Below are positions 5,485 to 60,759 of a stretch of 64,000 nt of DNA, piece by piece. Every line of letters starts with the position of its first letter. Position 1 is the stretch's first letter. The position numbers and the translations under genes are program-made. The notes under the pieces were generated by a model. That model worked only from the letters and a program-made list of their open reading frames with translations. It ran no database searches and was not told the DNA's origin. Origin of the DNA: Minisyncoccota bacterium (lineage in GTDB: Bacteria > Patescibacteriota > Minisyncoccia > Phycocordibacterales > UBA2100); contig DATDXU010000005.1 in NCBI GenBank assembly GCA_036517195.1, forward strand, positions 4,975-68,974, written 5' to 3'.

Positions 5485-5544
5485 TCCTCGCAGGGAGTGA
5501 TGTTTTAGTGTATCCACGCACCAAAGGATCACCGCGTTATATAA

Positions 5545-5579
5545 GGCGGTATTAGATCCTTGGTGCGGGATTCCGCACC
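5545..5579. repeat. Copy A of a palindromic repeat family with core GGTGCGGGATTYCGCACC
   Basis: Related copies lie at 30800-30833 and 60629-60662. The internal inverted repeat is GGTGCGG/CCGCACC. Confidence 0.5.
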
Positions 5580-5653
5580 GCGAGCAAGCTTTTGGGCTTT
5601 GTTACAAACGTTTGGTATCATGAGCTTGCTCGCGGTGCTTCATTTTAATTCTT

Positions 5654-5704
5654 TGCGGGATCATCTAGTGGTAGGACTTCTCCCTCTGGAGGAGAGTATC
5701 TTGG
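5654..5704 (+). pseudogene. Truncated tRNA-Gln-like fragment (5' 51 nt, D-arm and anticodon arm only)
   Basis: Matches the first 51 nt of the intact tRNA-Gln at 5774 with 2 mismatches, then diverges. It has no T-arm and no acceptor 3' strand. Confidence 0.5.
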
Positions 5705-5773
5705 CCCGCCCCGTTAGATATTTTTGTAGAATACGCGGTTGATACTACAATACACACAGCTTGTTTCCATCGC

Positions 5774-5844
5774 TGCGGGATCGTCTAACGGTAGGACTTC
5801 TCCCTCTGGAGGAGAGTATCTTGGTTCGAGTCCAAGTCCCGCAG
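5774..5844 (+). tRNA. tRNA-Gln (anticodon CTG)
   Basis: Hand-folded cloverleaf with acceptor TGCGGGA/TCCCGCA, anticodon loop CTCTGGA and T-arm CTTGG-TTCGAGT-CCAAG. Confidence 0.75.
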
Positions 5845-5900
5845 CGATGGGCGTAAGCATGCAGATGCCAGTAGTATATGTATATCTAACGGGGTGAAAA

Positions 5901-5915
5901 TCCAAGTCCCGCAGC
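5901..5915 (+). repeat. 15-nt duplicate of the tRNA-Gln 3' end (TCCAAGTCCCGCAGC)
   Basis: Identical to 5831-5845. It abuts the left direct repeat of the islet. Confidence 0.6.
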
Positions 5916-5950
5916 CAGGTTTGAGATAGGTTCGGACTCCGAGGAGCATT
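5912..5950. repeat. Left direct repeat of the islet (CAGCCAGGTTTGAGATAGGTTCGGACTCCGAGGAGCATT)
   Basis: Repeated at 7574-7610 with a single 1-nt indel. Confidence 0.75.
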
Positions 5951-10254: not shown

Positions 10255-10312
10255 AGTGGGGCGGTATGTTCCATGTCTCTGGATGAGTTTTGGAATGTGT
10301 GAACATACACCG

Positions 10313-10338
10313 TTCTAGCTTTTTGCAAAAAGCTAGAA
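10313..10338. promoter_or_regulatory. Perfect 12-2-12 palindrome TTCTAGCTTTTT-GC-AAAAAGCTAGAA (site 1), a putative ArsR-family operator upstream of the regulator gene
   Basis: Identical 26-mers occur at 10603-10628 and 58939-58964. A 12-2-12 dyad is the classic operator architecture for ArsR/SmtB regulators. Confidence 0.55.
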
Positions 10339-10355
10339 TATAATGACGTACACAT

Positions 10356-10631
10356 ATGGCGCAAGAAAAATATCGCGTGTTGGAACGGATTATAAAAGGT
10401 TTTGCGAACCATCGGCGGCTCGCAATTCTTGATTTGTTGAAAAAGAGGCCAGAGCAGACTCTCGACGATATTGTGGAGACACTCGGCATTGGGTACCAAA
10501 ACGCATCGGATCATGTGCGCAAACTTGCGATTGCGGGTCTCGTGGCAAAGCGTAGTGACGGCTTGAATGTGCGACACAAACTTACGCCACGCGCAGAAAC
10601 CATTCTAGCTTTTTGCAAAAAGCTAGAATAA
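10356..10631 (+). CDS. ArsR/SmtB-family HTH transcriptional regulator
   Basis: The 91-aa protein has an HRRLAILDLL...LDDIVETLGIGYQNASDHVRKL winged helix. Confidence 0.7.
   Translation: MAQEKYRVLERIIKGFANHRRLAILDLLKKRPEQTLDDIVETLGIGYQNASDHVRKLAIAGLVAKRSDGLNVRHKLTPRAETILAFCKKLE
10603..10628. promoter_or_regulatory. Palindrome site 2, overlapping the last codons and stop of the ArsR-like gene and upstream of a small Cys-rich ORF
   Basis: Identical 26-mer. The stop codon TAA lies at 10629-10631. Confidence 0.5.
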
Positions 10632-10750
10632 GAAACTTTGCATCTCTTTGTTCCGAGGCGTAAAGGATCATTTTTTGTAAGGATGCTTTGTTTCTCTTTC
10701 TCCAGTGATATGATTTTGAGAGGTGGAGTAATGCAAAAAAGAGGTGATCT

Positions 10751-11005: not shown

Positions 11006-11020
11006 TAATATAATTGAATT

Positions 11021-11713: not shown

Positions 11714-12145
11714 ATGAAAAAGACCATTTCAATACTGGTACTCGCGTGCGCAGTCTTCGCTCTGTGGTATTTTTTGTCTGACGCACCAGGCAATGACTCG
11801 CGGGTAGTGTATGTGAATAGTTCTGCCGATCTTATTCGTGTTGAGGGGCCCTTGCCCGACGATTCTCTTGGCAAGACATTTACAGTTGAGGGCGAAGCTC
11901 GAGGGTTCTGGTTTTTTGAAAATTCTTTTCCCGTTGAAGTTCTCGATGCAAACGGTGTTGTCATTGGACGGGGACTCGGCGCAAGTAGTGAGGAATGGAT
12001 GACGGAGAATTTCATACCGTTTACGGCTCCTGTGGAAATTGTCGGTGAATATACGGGACAGGCAACACTTGTGCTCAAAAAAGACAATCCTTCCGGTGAT
12101 CCTGATCGAGACGCGTCGGTGTCTTTTGTGGTGTCGATATATTAA
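11714..12145 (+). CDS. Hypothetical secreted protein
   Basis: N-terminal signal/TM helix MKKTISILVLACAVFALW followed by a beta-rich domain. Confidence 0.4.
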   Translation: MKKTISILVLACAVFALWYFLSDAPGNDSRVVYVNSSADLIRVEGPLPDDSLGKTFTVEGEARGFWFFENSFPVEVLDANGVVIGRGLGASSEEWMTENFIPFTAPVEIVGEYTGQATLVLKKDNPSGDPDRDASVSFVVSIY

Positions 12146-12183
12146 CCAAAACGAGGGCTACTTTTTGTTGTATACTGGACACT

Positions 12184-12504
12184 ATGACACTGGAAGATGG
12201 AATATCGAGGCAGGGGCGCGTGCGCCCTATTGAGCATGGGGAAGAGCGCATCGCATTTTCCGCACTTAGGTATAGGGGAGAAATCTTCACTGGCGCAAAT
12301 CACGGCGATGCACTCATTGATCTTGAGGAGACACACCCAGATTTTGTGGGACGGGAAGTTGATGATGGTTTTACTACTTCTAGTGGGAGGTTTGTGGACA
12401 GAGTTGAGGCGTATACAATTGCGCGCAGTCAAGGCCAGCTGAAGCAGCGGTTTATTAGCTACAAAGGGGAGGGTGATTTAGACAGCAATTACCTACTTTC
12501 CTAG
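12184..12504 (+). CDS. Hypothetical protein
   Basis: 106-aa ORF with no recognisable motif. Confidence 0.3.
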   Translation: MTLEDGISRQGRVRPIEHGEERIAFSALRYRGEIFTGANHGDALIDLEETHPDFVGREVDDGFTTSSGRFVDRVEAYTIARSQGQLKQRFISYKGEGDLDSNYLLS

Positions 12505-30726: not shown

Positions 30727-30749
30727 ATAAGGGGTGATGAAAAATGAAG

Positions 30750-30776
30750 CACCACGGGCGAGTCCGTGGTGTTTTA
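30750..30776 (+). terminator. Rho-independent terminator after groEL
   Basis: CACCACGG-gcgagt-CCGTGGTG followed by TTTT. Confidence 0.6.
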
Positions 30777-30799
30777 GAGTTTACAGCAAAACCTAAATA

Positions 30800-30833
30800 C
30801 TTGTCCGTGGTGCGGAATCCCGCACCGAGGACC
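30800..30833. repeat. Palindromic repeat family copy B (reverse orientation of the copy at 60629)
   Basis: CTTGTCCGTGGTGCGGAATCCCGCACCGAGGACC is the reverse complement of 60629-60662 except for 1-2 nt. Confidence 0.55.
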
Positions 30834-30933
30834 AGTTCATTTGTGTGTACACTGGTGGTCCTCTGGTGCGTGGAAGAAGGCCGCCCTGTGAGATAGCGAG
30901 CTTTGTGAGCTCAATCTCATAGGACGGTTTTCG

Positions 30934-32050: not shown

Positions 32051-32972
32051 TTGTGTGGAGAAGAATAGAGACGTATTAGGAAGAGAAAACAAAAAGACGG
32101 GTATTTCTCGTCGCACACTTCTCATAGGAGTTTCTGCTGTGGCGGGAGCGACTCTCGGTGGCGTTATCGCACATAGGGCGTTTTCGCCAAAGGAAACCAA
32201 GACCGATTTTCCAAAAAAAACTCCGACGCTCAGTCCAGAGAAAATTCCTACGAGCATTGATCGGGTACATGCAGAGATAGAACATGCGCGCATCCTCCTG
32301 TCTTCAAAAGACCCACTCGATGTTCTCAAAAGCACACATCTTGTGTCTGCCCTGTATTATTCCGACAGATTCCTTGCGTCTATTTTAAAATCAAGTGATA
32401 CGCCTGATGAATCACATGAAATCGTGCGCGGCATTGTCCCCCATATCACCACAGATGTTCGGCGGCGCTATGTGGAAGCTCTTTCAAAAGAGGCGTATAG
32501 AGCATTTGGCGAGCGATCCGAAGAGAAGCGCTCGCTCCCATTTCCGAAGTTAGATTTTGGACGAGGGGACAATCATCCTGATGCAGTGGATATTTTTGCG
32601 CGAGAGGGAACTAAAATCGCCTCTGTTCGAAGGGGTGTCGTTGTTTTGGCGGAATCCGGTTGGACCGAAAAGAATCCGTATCTTGGAACTTCTCCAAGGG
32701 GTGGAAACACAGCTATCGTTTTTAATCAGGATTCCAAACAGTTTTATCGGTATGCTCATCTCGATAGGGTTTCTATACGTACCGGAGAGGTGATAGGGGC
32801 GGGGCATTCCATAGGAACCGTTGGGAGAACTGGCATCAACGCTTTTCAAAATCGTAGCGCCAGTCATGTGCATCTGGAAATTAATGCATATACTCCAGCA
32901 ACACAGGGTATGAGATCGCTCTCGTCTCATGAAGTTAAACAAGAGATTCAAAAAATTAATTCAAATTCGTAA
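32001..32972 (+). CDS. M23 family metallopeptidase (LytM-like); the start is uncertain
   Basis: The C-terminal HxxxD...HVHLEIN Zn-binding motifs (GAGHSIGTVGRTG...SHVHLE). Confidence 0.65.
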   Translation: MERVRWPQKNQLQSSFNCVEKNRDVLGRENKKTGISRRTLLIGVSAVAGATLGGVIAHRAFSPKETKTDFPKKTPTLSPEKIPTSIDRVHAEIEHARILLSSKDPLDVLKSTHLVSALYYSDRFLASILKSSDTPDESHEIVRGIVPHITTDVRRRYVEALSKEAYRAFGERSEEKRSLPFPKLDFGRGDNHPDAVDIFAREGTKIASVRRGVVVLAESGWTEKNPYLGTSPRGGNTAIVFNQDSKQFYRYAHLDRVSIRTGEVIGAGHSIGTVGRTGINAFQNRSASHVHLEINAYTPATQGMRSLSSHEVKQEIQKINSNS

Positions 32973-32977
32973 TTGTA

Positions 32978-33107
32978 TGAATCCCGTTAGAAGTCGCGGA
33001 CGCATGCGAGAGGGGGTGTATACACATAAGTTTTGTGTTATACACTAATCGAGTGGGGGTGTGGAAATTTAAGTTTTTCCGCGTCCTACTTCTAAACGGG
33101 ATGAATA
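32978..33107. repeat. MITE-like element copy E1 (about 130 bp, terminal inverted repeats TGAATCCCGTTAGAAGTCGCGGACGC / CCGCGTCCTACTTCTAAACGGGATGAAT)
   Basis: It is homologous, in inverted orientation, to the copy at 44831-44956. Its right end overlaps the htpX start codon. Confidence 0.55.
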
Positions 33108-38255: not shown

Positions 38256-38277
38256 TGTATGTGTGGTATAATGTAAG

Positions 38278-38646
38278 TCTGCGCCGGGCAATTGATGGAT
38301 GTTGAAAAATGTCTATAGGAAAGTCCGGACATGTGTCCCGCCTTGGCGGGACAGCAGGGTAGCGGGTAACACCCGTCGTGCGCAAGCATAGGGATGCGAG
38401 CAGAAACGGTGCGAAGCGAGAGCTGAGTACCGCCCCTTGAAATCCTACATAAGTATTTCACTGGGGCGAATCCGATAGGTAACTATTGGAATGAAACGGC
38501 AAAATTCCTACCTACATGCAAGGTCGTGCTCGTCAACACCACGCGTGGTGGCGAGAGTGCCGCTTGAGGTTGTCGGTAACGACAATCCCAGATAAATGGT
38601 TGCCTCCCGCGATTGCGGGAACAGAATCCGGCTTACAGGCGCAGCG
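38278..38646 (+). ncRNA. rnpB: RNase P RNA (bacterial type A), with an upstream extended -10 (TGGTATAAT at 38263-38271)
   Basis: GGAAAGUCCGGAC, CAGGGUAGCGGGUAACACCCG and ACAGAAUCCGGCUUACAGG are conserved blocks. P1 pairs UCUGCGCC with GGCGCAG. Confidence 0.8.
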
Positions 38647-38651
38647 AAATG

Positions 38652-44712: not shown

Positions 44713-44830
44713 GGCGACTCTCTAAATCAACCCGGGCGCGAAGAAGAGCACCATGCTGATGCTGATGAGAATTGCGAGTACCCCCCACACAATTTTCATT
44801 ATTTTTTTTGTTCGTTTTTCAAATAAGAAG

Positions 44831-44956
44831 CTCATCCCGTTTTAAGTAGGACGCGGAAACACACATCACTCCACATCCTCTCGGTTAGTGTTTGTAATTA
44901 TCGACTTGTTTCACATGTATCTGACGCATGCGTCCGCGACTTCTAACGGGACTCAT
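44831..44956. repeat. MITE-like element copy E3 (homologous to E1, opposite orientation)
   Basis: Right end CGCATGCGTCCGCGACTTCTAACGGGACTCAT is the reverse complement of the E1 left end at 30/31 nt. The left end CTCATCCCGTTTTAAGTAGGACGCGGA matches the E1 right end. The interior shares CACTAAYCGAG..GTGGA. Confidence 0.55.
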
Positions 44957-45199
44957 ACTATCGATGAGGTACACCCCGCAGTAGATGGTGGCGAATGAAT
45001 ACACTCGCGCTTGTGATGCCACACCAACCGCAGTGTACAGGAACAGTATAAGATAGTAATAATTAAATTTCCACTTCTCGCGTGTTCACATTTTGAACAA
45101 TTTCTGTACAAGAAAATCACAAACTGCTCTTGTACAATGATACACCGCCCGTGGTGAGAAGTATCGCCACCATTCACTGACGGGGTACAATTATACTGT

Positions 45200-46246: not shown

Positions 46247-46344
46247 GCCTTTTTCTCCTACATCCACAGGTTCAGTTCTAATCTTGATGCAGTATAAACC
46301 AAATTTTATTATTGTCAACTTTTGTGCGGGCACGGAGAATCCCT

Positions 46345-46363
46345 GCCTGCCGGCAGGCAGGGA
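46345..46363. repeat. Palindrome CCTGCCTGCCGGCAGGCAGG (copy 1), next to tRNA-Gly
   Basis: A second copy lies at 55689-55707 next to tRNA-Val. Confidence 0.5.
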
Positions 46364-46376
46364 ACTCATATTTTGA

Positions 46377-46447
46377 TGCGAGTGGGGGGAATCGAACCCC
46401 CATCTAATGCTTGGGAAGCATTCATTCTGCCACTAAACTACACTCGC
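46377..46447 (-). tRNA. tRNA-Gly (anticodon CCC)
   Basis: Minus-strand cloverleaf with acceptor GCGAGTG/CACTCGC, anticodon loop TTCCCAA and T-loop TTCGATT. Confidence 0.8.
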
Positions 46448-46493
46448 TTACATTTGGGAAGTTTACCCCGTAGGAAGTGCGAAGCAATTTCCT

Positions 46494-46528
46494 GCGGGGC
46501 ATTCATTCTGCCACTAAACTATGCCCGC
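46494..46528 (-). pseudogene. Partial copy of the tRNA-Gly 5' half (acceptor, D-arm and anticodon stem)
   Basis: GCGGGCATAGTTTAGTGGCAGAATGAATGC matches tRNA-Gly positions 1-30 with few changes and has no 3' half. Confidence 0.45.
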
Positions 46529-46589
46529 TTTTTGTTCTCGTATTGCAGTATGGTACACTATAGAAAAATTAATTGGTATATACATATAT

Positions 46590-49580: not shown

Positions 49581-49710
49581 TGTATCCCGTTAGAAATAAG
49601 AAGCTTGCGCTCCTGGCCTGAGAGTTGCACCTTGCTGCTATTCGTTTCTTTTGACATATTTTTTATGTACTACCAGTCAAACTTCTGCGATTTCTAACGG
49701 GATGAATGCG
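49581..49710. repeat. MITE-like element copy E2 (divergent member, inverted repeats TATCCCGTTAGAAAT / ATTTCTAACGGGATGAATG)
   Basis: 14-16 bp terminal inverted repeats share the TCCCGTTAGAA core with E1 and E3. The interior differs. Confidence 0.45.
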
Positions 49711-50394
49711 TTTTACGTATTCAAGCACGGCGAGCAGTACAATGACCCCAATCCATACCAAAGAAAAGGTTCGCAATAGATGCTCTTCCGATACAGTAAG
49801 TATAAGGAAGTTGAAAGTACTGTGCAAAAGCGCGGCGAGGATAACTCCAATCCACGCGAAGTGTATACGTGCCCTTTCCCCCCTGTAGAATGAAAGTGCT
49901 ATGGCGACACCCACGACAGCAGAGGAAAGAACGTGGAGTAACGTGGCGCCCAAGAAGCGCAAGTTGCCCGTCATGACCGTTTCAACGAGGGTATTTCCCG
50001 CAAGTGGACTCAATAAAAAGAGCGTGTTTTCTATTGCCGCAAAACCAAGTGCCACAGTTACCATATAGATAACGGGATCAATCGGTTCATCATCTTCGCG
50101 TCTTCGCAATACAGTGAGTCGCGCTGCGAGATATTTGACAACTTCCTCGATAACAGACCACGCTGTAAAAATTATGACTGTTCCAGTCAAAAATCCCGCG
50201 GCGAATTTTTGGATCGGAATAACAACGGCAACGCTTATCATGCCCGCGAGGAATGCGAGCGCGATCAAGTATCGTGGTTCCGGATGTTCAGAATCTTCGC
50301 GGAGCCAAAACCACAACCAAGCAAGGGCAGGGAAGATGCCGCCCGCAATCGCTATCACGAAAGGAAAAATTTCAGTCATGGAGTAGTAGTCCAT
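49663..50394 (-). CDS. PrsW-family intramembrane metalloprotease (putative)
   Basis: A polytopic membrane protein with EEVVKYL (EExxK), FAAIENTLF (FxxxE) and a HVLSSAV (H) motif. Confidence 0.5.
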   Translation of the reverse strand: MDYYSMTEIFPFVIAIAGGIFPALAWLWFWLREDSEHPEPRYLIALAFLAGMISVAVVIPIQKFAAGFLTGTVIIFTAWSVIEEVVKYLAARLTVLRRREDDEPIDPVIYMVTVALGFAAIENTLFLLSPLAGNTLVETVMTGNLRFLGATLLHVLSSAVVGVAIALSFYRGERARIHFAWIGVILAALLHSTFNFLILTVSEEHLLRTFSLVWIGVIVLLAVLEYVKRIHPVRNRRSLTGST

Positions 50395-55688: not shown

Positions 55689-55707
55689 CCCTGCCTGCCG
55701 GCAGGCA
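55689..55707. repeat. Palindrome CTGCCTGCCGGCAGGCAGG (copy 2), about 65 bp upstream of tRNA-Val
   Basis: Matches 46345-46363. Confidence 0.5.
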
Positions 55708-55812
55708 GGTAAGCGCGCCATCGTACACCATTATACTTATTACTGTGAAAATGCTATAAAGCACGAGGTTCGTTGCTCGCTAGCAGGGCAATAATAGAGG
55801 AGAATACACACA

Positions 55813-58815: not shown

Positions 58816-58938
58816 TGTGTTGTGAGTATGGGGCGTGTGCGGGAGGAATCTCGCCACGCTCCATTTTTTATGGAATGTACTTTTCTTGAAATGGCCATAC
58901 ACTATATATAGTTTTGAAAAGGTATGAAAATTACACCA

Positions 58939-58964
58939 TTCTAGCTTTTTGCAAAAAGCTAGAA
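58939..58964. promoter_or_regulatory. Palindrome site 3, identical to the 26-mer at 10313, upstream of a secreted-protein gene
   Basis: Exact match to TTCTAGCTTTTTGCAAAAAGCTAGAA. Confidence 0.5.
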
Positions 58965-58981
58965 TGTAATAGTGTGAGTGC

Positions 58982-60540: not shown

Positions 60541-60628
60541 GAACACATGCGCTCCCCAAAAGGGGAGCGTTCTTCCACGCACCAGAGGACCAGGGGTTTA
60601 CTTACGGGGTTTACTTACGGACGAATGG

Positions 60629-60710
60629 GTCCTCGGTGCGGGATTTCGCACCACGGACAAGCTTTCGTATTTTGTCGTATGTCCAAATGGTATGAGCTTG
60701 TCCGTGGTGC
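60629..60710. repeat. Palindromic repeat family copy C plus a flanking inverted half-copy
   Basis: GGTCCTCGGTGCGGGATTTCGCACCACGGACAAGC, then 33 bp, then GCTTGTCCGTGGTGC. The tandem repeat GGGGTTTACTTAC x2 lies at 60593-60618. Confidence 0.5.
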
Positions 60711-60759
60711 TTCATTTTTACTGTGATAGAATCACACAATTATATAATCTAAAAAAGGT

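Follow-up and report, generated by a model that had tools for sequence, protein, structure and literature searches.

A start-codon insertion in a Minisyncoccota genome is probably a non-autonomous copy of a very small mobile DNA element family of Patescibacteria

Bacterial MITEs, or miniature inverted-repeat transposable elements, such as the Correia/NEMIS repeats of Neisseria, RUP, and MITEAba12, are non-coding sequences of about 100-130 bp with inverted repeats and a short duplication that occur in several copies per genome, fold into a long hairpin and are co-transcribed with neighbouring genes. The same description fits a family of repeats that we characterized starting from E3, a 126-bp palindromic sequence in a 64,000-nt stretch of Minisyncoccota DNA (contig DATDXU010000005.1, positions 4,975 to 68,974; hereafter the window). 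In our judgement E3 is quite likely a non-autonomous MITE-like copy, lacking an open reading frame (ORF) for a mobility protein, of a very small DNA element family that is mobile in Patescibacteria; E3 itself may no longer move. The family differs from described bacterial MITEs in that its members insert on the start codon itself (ATGNN), keep a fixed orientation to the gene and span many candidate phyla, and in that the only ORF-bearing relatives found encode a GIY-YIG nuclease of 80-86 amino acids (aa) and no DDE transposase. Start-codon insertion and the nature of these relatives are what sets it apart from the described elements.

Several other systems share part of this anatomy. GIY-YIG homing endonucleases (I-TevI, Seg) place a GIY-YIG catalytic domain on a selfish insert, a likeness that concerns only the larger relatives in our family. 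They have a long DNA-binding domain, one conserved homing site of 30-40 bp, and neither inverted ends nor duplications, whereas the family nuclease is a bare catalytic domain and the insertion sites lie in unrelated genes with only ATGNN in common. Stand-alone prokaryotic Slx1-like/UPF0213 proteins are minimal GIY-YIG enzymes, which Dunin-Horkawicz et al. (2006, PMC1564403) took to be repair nucleases of vertical inheritance. The family nuclease likewise consists of a single GIY-YIG domain without auxiliary domains, and its nearest solved structure is the UPF0213/prokaryotic Slx1-like protein 1ZG2 (E = 2e-8); in contrast to the proteins of that study, the members found here are encoded between inverted repeats, which supply the C-terminus, and their genes have inserted at start codons. 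PATEs (derived from IS200/IS605) and REP/RAYT systems are also small hairpin-forming repeats inserted beside a short motif, with folded single-stranded DNA as the presumed substrate. They lack terminal inverted repeats of the whole element and target duplications and use an HUH/Y1 transposase, whereas the family has full inverted repeats and a copy-specific 5-bp duplication, and a search for pairs of termini revealed no HUH gene enclosed by family ends. A similarity to integron attC sites (GTTAGAA / TTCTAAC) was rejected, as in the hairpin the GTT/AAC boxes have the reverse polarity.

The published observation closest to the family concerns rRNA genes of the Candidate Phyla Radiation (CPR). 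For these, Tsurumaki et al. (2024, PMC11270868) describe inserts that belong to neither group I nor group II introns and contain GIY-YIG ORFs, as well as insertions of <200 bp that lack an ORF, located at the tops or bases of stem-loops. Compared by description only, these inserts occur in the same host group as our family, which has units in RNase P RNA and tRNA. The main text of that paper contains neither "inverted repeat" nor "hairpin"; duplications, ORF-less derivatives, and start-codon insertion, for which it was not searched, go unmentioned in the available passages. Literature on the terminal sequence, on GIY-YIG nucleases with inverted repeats, duplications, or MITEs, and on leaderless translation in CPR yielded no description of the family within a coverage that is incomplete.

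E3 occupies window positions 44831-44956, a span that is exactly duplication, element, and duplication. Read on the minus strand it runs ..GATAGT-ATGAG-T-CCCGTTAGAAGT...ACTTAAAACGGG-ATGAG-CTTCTTATTTGAA.., measuring 115 nt from CCCG to CGGG, with inverted ends of 12-13 nt. The 5' copy of the target-site duplication, ATGAG (44952-44956, minus strand, as are all E3 features), corresponds to a single ATGAG in relatives. It is followed on the gene-distal side by one extra base, here T (44951), which is a constant feature family-wide and usually a T, and then by the 5' terminal inverted repeat CCCGTTAGAAGT (44939-44950), whose arm is the same as that of the sister copy E1 over 31 nt, through GCATGCG. 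The 3' terminal inverted repeat (44836-44847) is slightly degenerate, with ACTTAAAACGGG in place of ACTTCTAACGGG. It abuts the 3' copy of ATGAG (44831-44835), which forms the start codon and two further nucleotides of a gene for a 37-aa membrane protein. The terminal repeats, CCCGTTAGAAGT / ACTT(AA)AACGGG, are prolonged by GGACGC / GCGTCC. A subterminal hairpin on the gene-proximal side, AGGATGTGGAG..TTTCCGCGTCCT (44848-44879, -14.8 kcal/mol), has a 3' strand for which GGACGC of the 5' arm is an alternative partner. The only coding capacity is an upstream ORF (uORF) of 23 codons, MSPVRSRGRMRQIHVKQVDNYKH followed by a stop, which opens at the 5' ATGAG, extends to 44885 and has its stop codon 49 nt upstream of the host ATG. 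The uORF length is not conserved among copies, and E3 has no GIY-YIG ORF.

The host gene, MSFLFEKRTKKIMKIVWGVLAILISISMVLFFAPGLI (44722-44835, minus strand), was identified by tblastn conservation. It is unannotated, and its hydrophobic product has no Pfam family; tblastn gave 52 matches among the loci of relatives at 57-80% identity, where the gene invariably lies between lepA and a DivIC/FtsB-like gene and is divergent from the latter. The original prediction, a reading of the window sequence alone, had located E3 between lepA and the ftsB-like gene, which is true and incomplete, as the element abuts the start codon of this conserved gene. In about 45 distinct relatives the 37-aa gene begins with ATGAG(C/T)TT, present once, and there is no element; the gene start in relatives is preceded by 12-75 nt holding two divergent promoters. 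These orthologous empty sites identify E3 as an insertion that duplicated 5 bp, namely the start codon and the two bases after it. E1 (32977-33105, plus strand; ATGAA-T-CCCGTTAGAAGT...ACTTCTAAACGGG-ATGAA) has the same layout, with the duplication ATGAA, on the start codon (33101) of htpX (peptidase M48). Copies of htpX without an element were found in 6 relatives, but these sites are weak evidence, because the upstream gene and the second codon differ. In three metagenomes with the source organism the lepA-ftsB spacer was identical, and no population polymorphism was seen. E3 thus shows several features of a MITE: small size, no transposase gene and no conserved coding capacity, terminal inverted repeats, a 5-bp duplication (ATGAG) with empty sites, and dispersed copies, others of which lie in the window. 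The term MITE-like, used from the start, named the right category.

The spacer upstream of the 37-aa gene contains other insertions. A GC-rich palindromic insert of about 100-150 nt (..GGAGCGAAGTGGAAATG...CGAGCGAAGTC) lies upstream of the gene in L173, L137, L157, L188, L168, and L156 (L-numbers denote loci from other Patescibacteria genomes used for comparison). The presence of this unlike insert at the same intergenic spot in several relatives suggests that the spacer is a hotspot of small insertions. In the window, an adjacent element of related type (44974-45184, plus strand, 211 nt) with the ends C-CCCGCAGTAG.. / ..CACTGACGGG is flanked by the duplication GTACA (44969-44973 and 45185-45189). 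Its arms of 21 nt are 81% complementary, and it is inserted where the divergent promoters of the 37-aa gene and the ftsB-like gene lie. It has the CCCG...CGGG ends and the asymmetry of one extra base in common with E3 and is otherwise different.

The relationship between E1 and E3 is carried by their arms. When E3 is reverse-complemented, its 5' arm is identical to that of E1, (A)TGA(A/G)TCCCGTTAGAAGTCGCGGACGCATGCG, and its 3' arm is nearly so, TTCCGCGTCCTACTT(CT/A)AAACGGGATGA; the shared arms are 31 nt and 27 nt long, and TTCCGCGTCCTACTT and AACGGGATGA are the same in both copies. The 21-mer CCCGTTAGAAGTCGCGGACGC occurs exactly twice in the window and in none of 100 shuffles. A repeat finder paired 32972-33008 with 44925-44961 (37 nt, 95% complementary) and 33057-33091 with 44844-44878 (35 nt, 77% complementary), in agreement with the end-to-end matches first noted, of the right end of E3 with the left end of E1 and vice versa. 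The interior block reported to be common to the two copies was also recovered, as ACACTAA(T/C)CGAG..GG(G/A)TGTGGA; in both, the 23-codon uORF has its stop in the first part of the block, while the last part forms the 5' side of the hairpin. The proposed identity of about 75% was too high. A global alignment gave 95/135 identical positions (70%), and between the arms 39/72 (54%), with shuffled interiors at 48 +/- 3%; when only the 12-nt termini were removed, identity was 65%, among the most similar pairs in the family. The value of 54% lies below the 60% that had been set as a floor for interior identity. However, family interiors are hypervariable (pairwise identity over all pairs: median 50%, 95th percentile 61%), so that this threshold is unsuited to the family, and the claim that E1 and E3 are true homologues stands on their common subfamily arms and insertion signature. 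Their inverted arrangement holds on the chromosome; relative to the downstream gene, both copies have the same orientation.

Species-representative genomes were scanned with a pattern built from the two ends. This yielded at least 119 loci, all from metagenome-assembled genomes (MAGs) of Patescibacteria/CPR, several of them from one and the same genome. Among the loci listed, the named groups include Kaiser-, Nomura-, Zambryski-, Yanofsky-, Jorgensen-, Kerfeld-, Falkow-, Sung-, Harrison-, and Yonathbacteria, and Minisyncoccia. The family layout is [ATGNN]-T-CCCGTTAGA..(variable)..TCTAACGGG-[ATGNN], and 124 oriented copies read [..ATGNN]-T-CCCGTTAGAAGT-(75-105 variable nt)-ACTTCTAACGGG-[ATGNN..]. 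ATG was present on both flanks in 81 of the 124; about 87 had an exact direct repeat of 4-6 nt in one register, [5 nt]-T-CCCG...CGGG-[5 nt], and the 3' ATG opened a long ORF in nearly all. The 13-nt ends were part of the search pattern and the flanks were not, so the result for ATG and direct repeats is unbiased. A relaxed search of 80 independently chosen loci (relatives found via MurJ) uncovered variants that retained the core CCCGTTAGA / TCTAACGGG. The three bases after the core vary in a compensatory way (AGT/ACT, AAT/ATT, GAT/ATC, GTT/AAC, GCG/CGC, TAT/ATA), and one end variant is GTGAGAT / ATCTCAC. There are 4 family members in the window and at least 8 in one MAG (JAUYLR01). A gene-proximal hairpin of -6 kcal/mol or stronger was present in 43/81 oriented copies, compared to 10/81 on the mirror side, and its stem covaries among subfamilies (GGAAGC-GCAA-GCTTCC, GGAAATC-TAAA-GATTTCC, GATAATC-TAAA-GATTATC). 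This bias means that the element interior is asymmetric and co-oriented with the gene. The orientation of the element relative to the host gene is fixed across the family.

Individual loci give evidence that the family is mobile DNA. In L105 a copy flanked by ATGAA is nested inside a copy flanked by ATGAG, and in L065 two units stand in tandem on one start codon. Copies within one MAG are 85-91% identical on different genes and with different duplications (L035/L080, L036/L046, L057/L112, L070/L092). The start codon of MurJ is filled in L124, L156, and L142, and empty in L123, L134, L169, L188, L174, L171, L148, and the window. The MurJ genes of L124 and L142 are 95% identical in nucleotides and carry elements of different subfamilies (62% identical); L124 and L156 are distant (MurJ 63% identical) and their elements are 74% identical. 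Closely related genomes thus show turnover of elements at one and the same site. No match was found in viral contigs for either the ORF-less or the nuclease-bearing pattern, and a phage vector is therefore not supported.

Family termini at wider spacing were found to delimit units of 274-278 bp, each enclosing exactly one ORF, a GIY-YIG nuclease of the size given above (Pfam PF01541, E 1e-12 to 1e-17, domain covering residues 1-70). These nuclease-bearing units of about 275-280 bp have the same core ends and ATGNN signature as the ORF-less copies and are present in L065, L053, L169/L174/L187, L200, L203, L207, L208, L210, and L213. The unit in L065 reads ATGAA-T-CCCGTTAGAGAT-N9-ATG...ATCTCTAACGGG-ATGAA. 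In L053 (CCCCGTTAGAAACC...GGGTTCTAACGGGG) an ordinary copy of 123 nt is nested on the nuclease start codon, followed by a 31-nt hairpin consisting of ends only. A unit with the ends CCCGTGAGAT...ATCTCACGGG (L169 3872-4145, L174 3263-3536, L187 173-448) occupies P3 of RNase P RNA, immediately ahead of GAGGAAAGTCCGG; at the Rfam gathering score RNase P goes undetected in these three loci, and the uninterrupted RNase P of the window (38276-38650) scores 124 bits. The right subterminus is homologous in the two classes, TTTCC-T-ACTTCTAACGGG in ORF-less copies and TTTCC-T-ATCTCTAACGGG in nuclease units, with the joint form TTTCCTA(CT/TC)TCTAACGGG.

A protein search gave more than 3100 homologues of the nuclease at E <= 1e-8. 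Most of the best 120 are 86 aa long; about 40% are longer, mainly 95 aa, with an N-terminal extension such as MxPVRD. In the 95-aa forms the N-terminus is M-(N/S/D)-P-V-R-D, a translation of the host ATG and the left repeat, which join the nuclease ORF in frame. The C-terminal motif ..KNRLKRFLSLTG (FLSLTG or a close variant) was present in all 32 sequences inspected from these best 120; it was terminal in 29, and the remaining 3 read on past the motif, where the flank is not ATGA. The right inverted repeat, CGT TTC CTA TCT CTA ACG GGA TGA, supplies the final seven codons (RFLSLTG), and the stop TGA overlaps the regenerated host ATG (ATGA). Six further nuclease contexts were retrieved by exact protein look-up. 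In five of them (L200, L207, L208, L210, L213) ATGNN stands on both sides and the next gene starts at the ATGA overlap; in L203 the unit lies between a stop codon and the next ATG. The NCBIfam model for group I intron endonucleases scored 22 bits against the nuclease, with a cut-off of 56.

Inverted ends with a 5-bp duplication are the standard signature of DDE transposases, and it could be argued that E3 is a classical MITE derived from an insertion sequence and moved in trans by such an enzyme (IS1380, IS3, or Tn3 type), the GIY-YIG ORF being a passenger or secondary invader. Family members can indeed carry tRNA genes as cargo (window 5710-5893; L120 11398-11511), so the ORF could be cargo too, and GIY-YIG nucleases are not generally known to catalyse transposition. 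However, GIY-YIG was the only kind of ORF found between family ends in about 1.9 Mb of Patescibacteria DNA, and no long-range pair of termini was found around a larger gene; one candidate pair (11929-12387) proved to be a chance match within a coding sequence. The nuclease has its C-terminus and stop codon built from the right repeat in each of the 32 homologues inspected, which argues for long co-evolution and not occasional capture. We therefore regard mobilization by a DDE transposase as unlikely.

Upstream of the 5' ATG, a Shine-Dalgarno-like motif was present in only 4/80 copies, and a TAnnnT box starting at -13/-12 from the 5' ATG, often preceded by TGn, in 29/71 (background about 1.5 per position). 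The scarcity of the former and the peak of the latter imply that about half of the host genes are leaderless, with the element at +6 of the transcript; the -10 box of the leaderless host genes lies 6-7 nt upstream of the ATG. Where the ORF-less classes measure 118, 115, 112, and 109 nt, a TAA within the right end closes the uORF 4 nt ahead of the ATG. A conserved leader peptide was rejected, as uORF lengths range from 6 to 40 codons and only MxPVRS is fixed, by the repeat. In-frame insertion or translational bypass was set aside, as element lengths are not multiples of 3, the second-codon match being explained by the duplication. In the window, many long ORFs (among them those at 11018, 13730, 22594, 23417, 36048, and 37785) have a TATAAT-like box 5-9 nt before the first ATG and no Shine-Dalgarno motif, beside starts that have one, and the genome thus appears to mix leaderless and leadered genes.

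From these data we infer, on sequence grounds, that the nuclease is the mobilizing enzyme and that translational coupling keeps the host gene expressed. The nuclease would mobilize the units with an ORF as well as those without one, E3 among them. Branched DNA is the substrate that Slx1-type enzymes cut, and as a bare GIY-YIG domain leaves no room for a sequence-reading domain, we propose that recognition is probably of the hairpin or cruciform formed by the ends and not of a long sequence. The enzyme would cut element and target, and host repair or ligation would complete the move and fill the 5-nt stagger. Landing on a start codon in fixed orientation would place the host promoter and a copy of ATG before the element ORF, so that the element could borrow promoter and start codon. 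The host gene might then be translated by re-initiation at the duplicated ATG, with the element ORF or uORF ending at or just before it. In E3, the 37-aa gene may be expressed less, or its expression may require a folded hairpin that brings the two ATGs together; given the 49 nt between uORF stop and host ATG and the degenerate proximal end, E3 may damp this gene and may be immobile. We tentatively suggest, as a possibility that could well prove wrong, that the family represents an unrecognised class of bacterial DNA transposon. Its autonomous form of about 280 bp would consist of two inverted ends of 12-14 nt and a gene for an 86-aa Slx1-like GIY-YIG nuclease, integrate at start codons, often those of leaderless genes, with ATGNN duplication, use the host promoter and start, restore translation through ATGA, give rise to ORF-less derivatives such as E1 and E3, and invade RNase P RNA, tRNA, and probably rRNA.

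A number of observations weigh against the main reading of E3, its family and the nuclease. No nuclease-bearing unit lies within the 64-kb window, and none of those found elsewhere has the exact AGAAGT ends of E1 and E3, their ends being AGAGAT, AGAGTT, AGAAAC, and GTGAGAT. The invariant termini of the first 119 loci are partly an effect of a search pattern that required them. A minority of copies have non-ATG duplications (CTTCG, TTTAA, ATAAG, GTACA), and two of these (L093, L091) keep to a slightly different register, in which each side has one extra base. The gene-proximal end of E3 is degenerate, and the element is possibly no longer mobile. GIY-YIG enzymes are hydrolytic nucleases with no known strand-transfer activity, so the nuclease alone does not explain integration or the 5-bp duplication, for which a host ligase or repair step is assumed.

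A further explanation concerns how the insertions are tolerated. They could be hairpins resembling intervening sequences that are removed or trimmed at the RNA level (e.g. by RNase III), as happens to hairpins inserted in rRNA genes, leaving a near-leaderless mRNA from the second AUG, an idea compatible with a mobile origin. The base of the stem abuts the host AUG, and members occur in loops of structured RNAs, namely P3 of RNase P in L169/L174/L187 and the T arm of a tRNA-Gln in the window; the GIY-YIG non-intron and short ORF-less insertions reported for CPR rRNA genes (PMC11270868) lie mostly at stem-loop tops or bases. The in-frame 5' ATG and the stop in or overlapping the right end point instead to translation through the element, and the insert in tRNA-Gln brings along a replacement copy of that gene, a sign that processing does not rescue the interrupted one. 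We consider RNA-level removal quite unlikely.

The genes downstream of the family gave no sign of common function. The 91 downstream genes match 117 different Pfam families, including aminoacyl-tRNA synthetases, SSB, H+-PPase, MurA, topoisomerase, and DnaB; being functionally unrelated they form no regulon, and this idea was rejected. The sense strands of E1 and E3 fold 7-10 kcal/mol better than the antisense strands, but no such difference was found family-wide (p = 0.15), and an RNA-specific structure was rejected. At the gathering score, Rfam 15 matched only tRNAs and RNase P in the window, with no match at E <= 1 around E1 and E3. The idea that the repeats act mainly in cis as RNA to regulate the downstream gene, whether as a 5' leader hairpin, an attenuator, a thermometer, or a processing site, and mark a regulon and not mobility is therefore largely refuted and highly improbable, for although the fixed orientation at the 5' end of genes, the positions of E1 before htpX and of another copy (49586-49701) upstream of hsp20, the better sense-strand folding of E1 and E3 and the covarying subterminal hairpin would suit it, the unrelated downstream genes, the empty orthologous site in about 45 relatives, the copy-specific direct duplications, the nested and tandem copies, the different subfamilies at one site in near-identical genomes, and the folding and Rfam results do not.

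If the transposon interpretation is true, the family would be among the smallest self-contained mobile elements known and the first with a bare GIY-YIG nuclease in the place of a transposase. It would represent a parasitic lifestyle for extremely compact genomes, in which the start codon is taken and duplicated, transcription and translation starts are borrowed from the host, and the ribosome is handed back to the host gene. It would also provide a common explanation for the non-intron GIY-YIG inserts and the short ORF-less inserts in CPR rRNA genes, and genes of mobile elements would be found among the "GIY-YIG nuclease" and "excinuclease ABC subunit C" annotations, in the thousands. Gene calling in Patescibacteria is affected by false N-terminal extensions (MNPVRS/D) and by missed small genes such as the 37-aa one, and presence or absence of the element is usable as a strain-level marker.

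Besides E1 and E3, two more members lie in the window. The third ORF-less member (49586-49701, minus strand; flanks ATTCA / ATACA) has the covarying ends TCCCGTTAGAAAT / ATTTCTAACGGG (AGAAAT / ATTTCT). It lies between a membrane-protease-like gene and hsp20, which starts 32 nt downstream, and the membrane-protease-like ORF (49663-50394) now ends inside it (..IHPVRNRRSLTGST, stop). The tRNA-carrying member (5710-5893, plus strand, 184 nt) has the termini CCCGTTAGATAT / ATATCTAACGGG. It splits an older tRNA-Gln(CTG) (5654-5918) in the T arm into the halves 5654-5708 and 5896-5918 and holds an intact tRNA-Gln(CTG) (5774-5845) behind a TACAAT box, which amounts to a self-replacing insertion into a tRNA gene. 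In the window region 46377-46535 (minus strand), the 5' half of tRNA-Gly(CCC) is partly duplicated upstream of that gene (about 46504-46535), and next comes a 34-nt hairpin of ends only, CCCCGCAGGAAAT..ACTTCCTACGGGG; the orthologous tRNA-Gly in L120 (11398-11511) lies inside a pair of family termini.

Shortened variants were also encountered. A 77-nt variant, CCCGTTAGAGCG..CGCTCTAACGGG, is inserted inside codon 4 of MurJ with the duplication CGGGC (L163 7202-7278, L164 2815-2891, L168 9923-9999, L150 2878-2954). It supplies a new in-frame ATG after TAAAAT-N6 and the N-terminus MFALTGRALQL, so that promoter and start codon are donated by the element. An outward -10 box in the right end was rejected for the family at large, as ACTTCTAACGGG is unlike one and an internal promoter with a new ATG was seen only in this variant. 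A mini-version of 50 nt, CCCCGTTAGAACTAACGGTCGCCAAGAGCGACCTACTTCTAACGGGG, was seen in L064 (about 1905-1950) within a YchF-like ORF, beside the DPVR motif of that ORF, and may be an in-frame insertion.

The window contains other repeats as well. A perfect palindrome of 27 nt, TTCTAGCTTTTTGCAAAAAGCTAGAAT, with conserved flanks is present in 3 copies (10306-10344, 10596-10634, 58932-58970), and a further repeat family of about 70-130 nt (TCCTTGGTGCGGGATTCCGCACCG..) occurs in direct and inverted orientation, also in 3 copies (5513-5646, 30740-30898, 60550-60719). A perfect palindrome of 21 nt, CCCTGCCTGCCGGCAGGCAGG, occurs twice (46341-46364 and 55689-55712), each time beside a tRNA gene.

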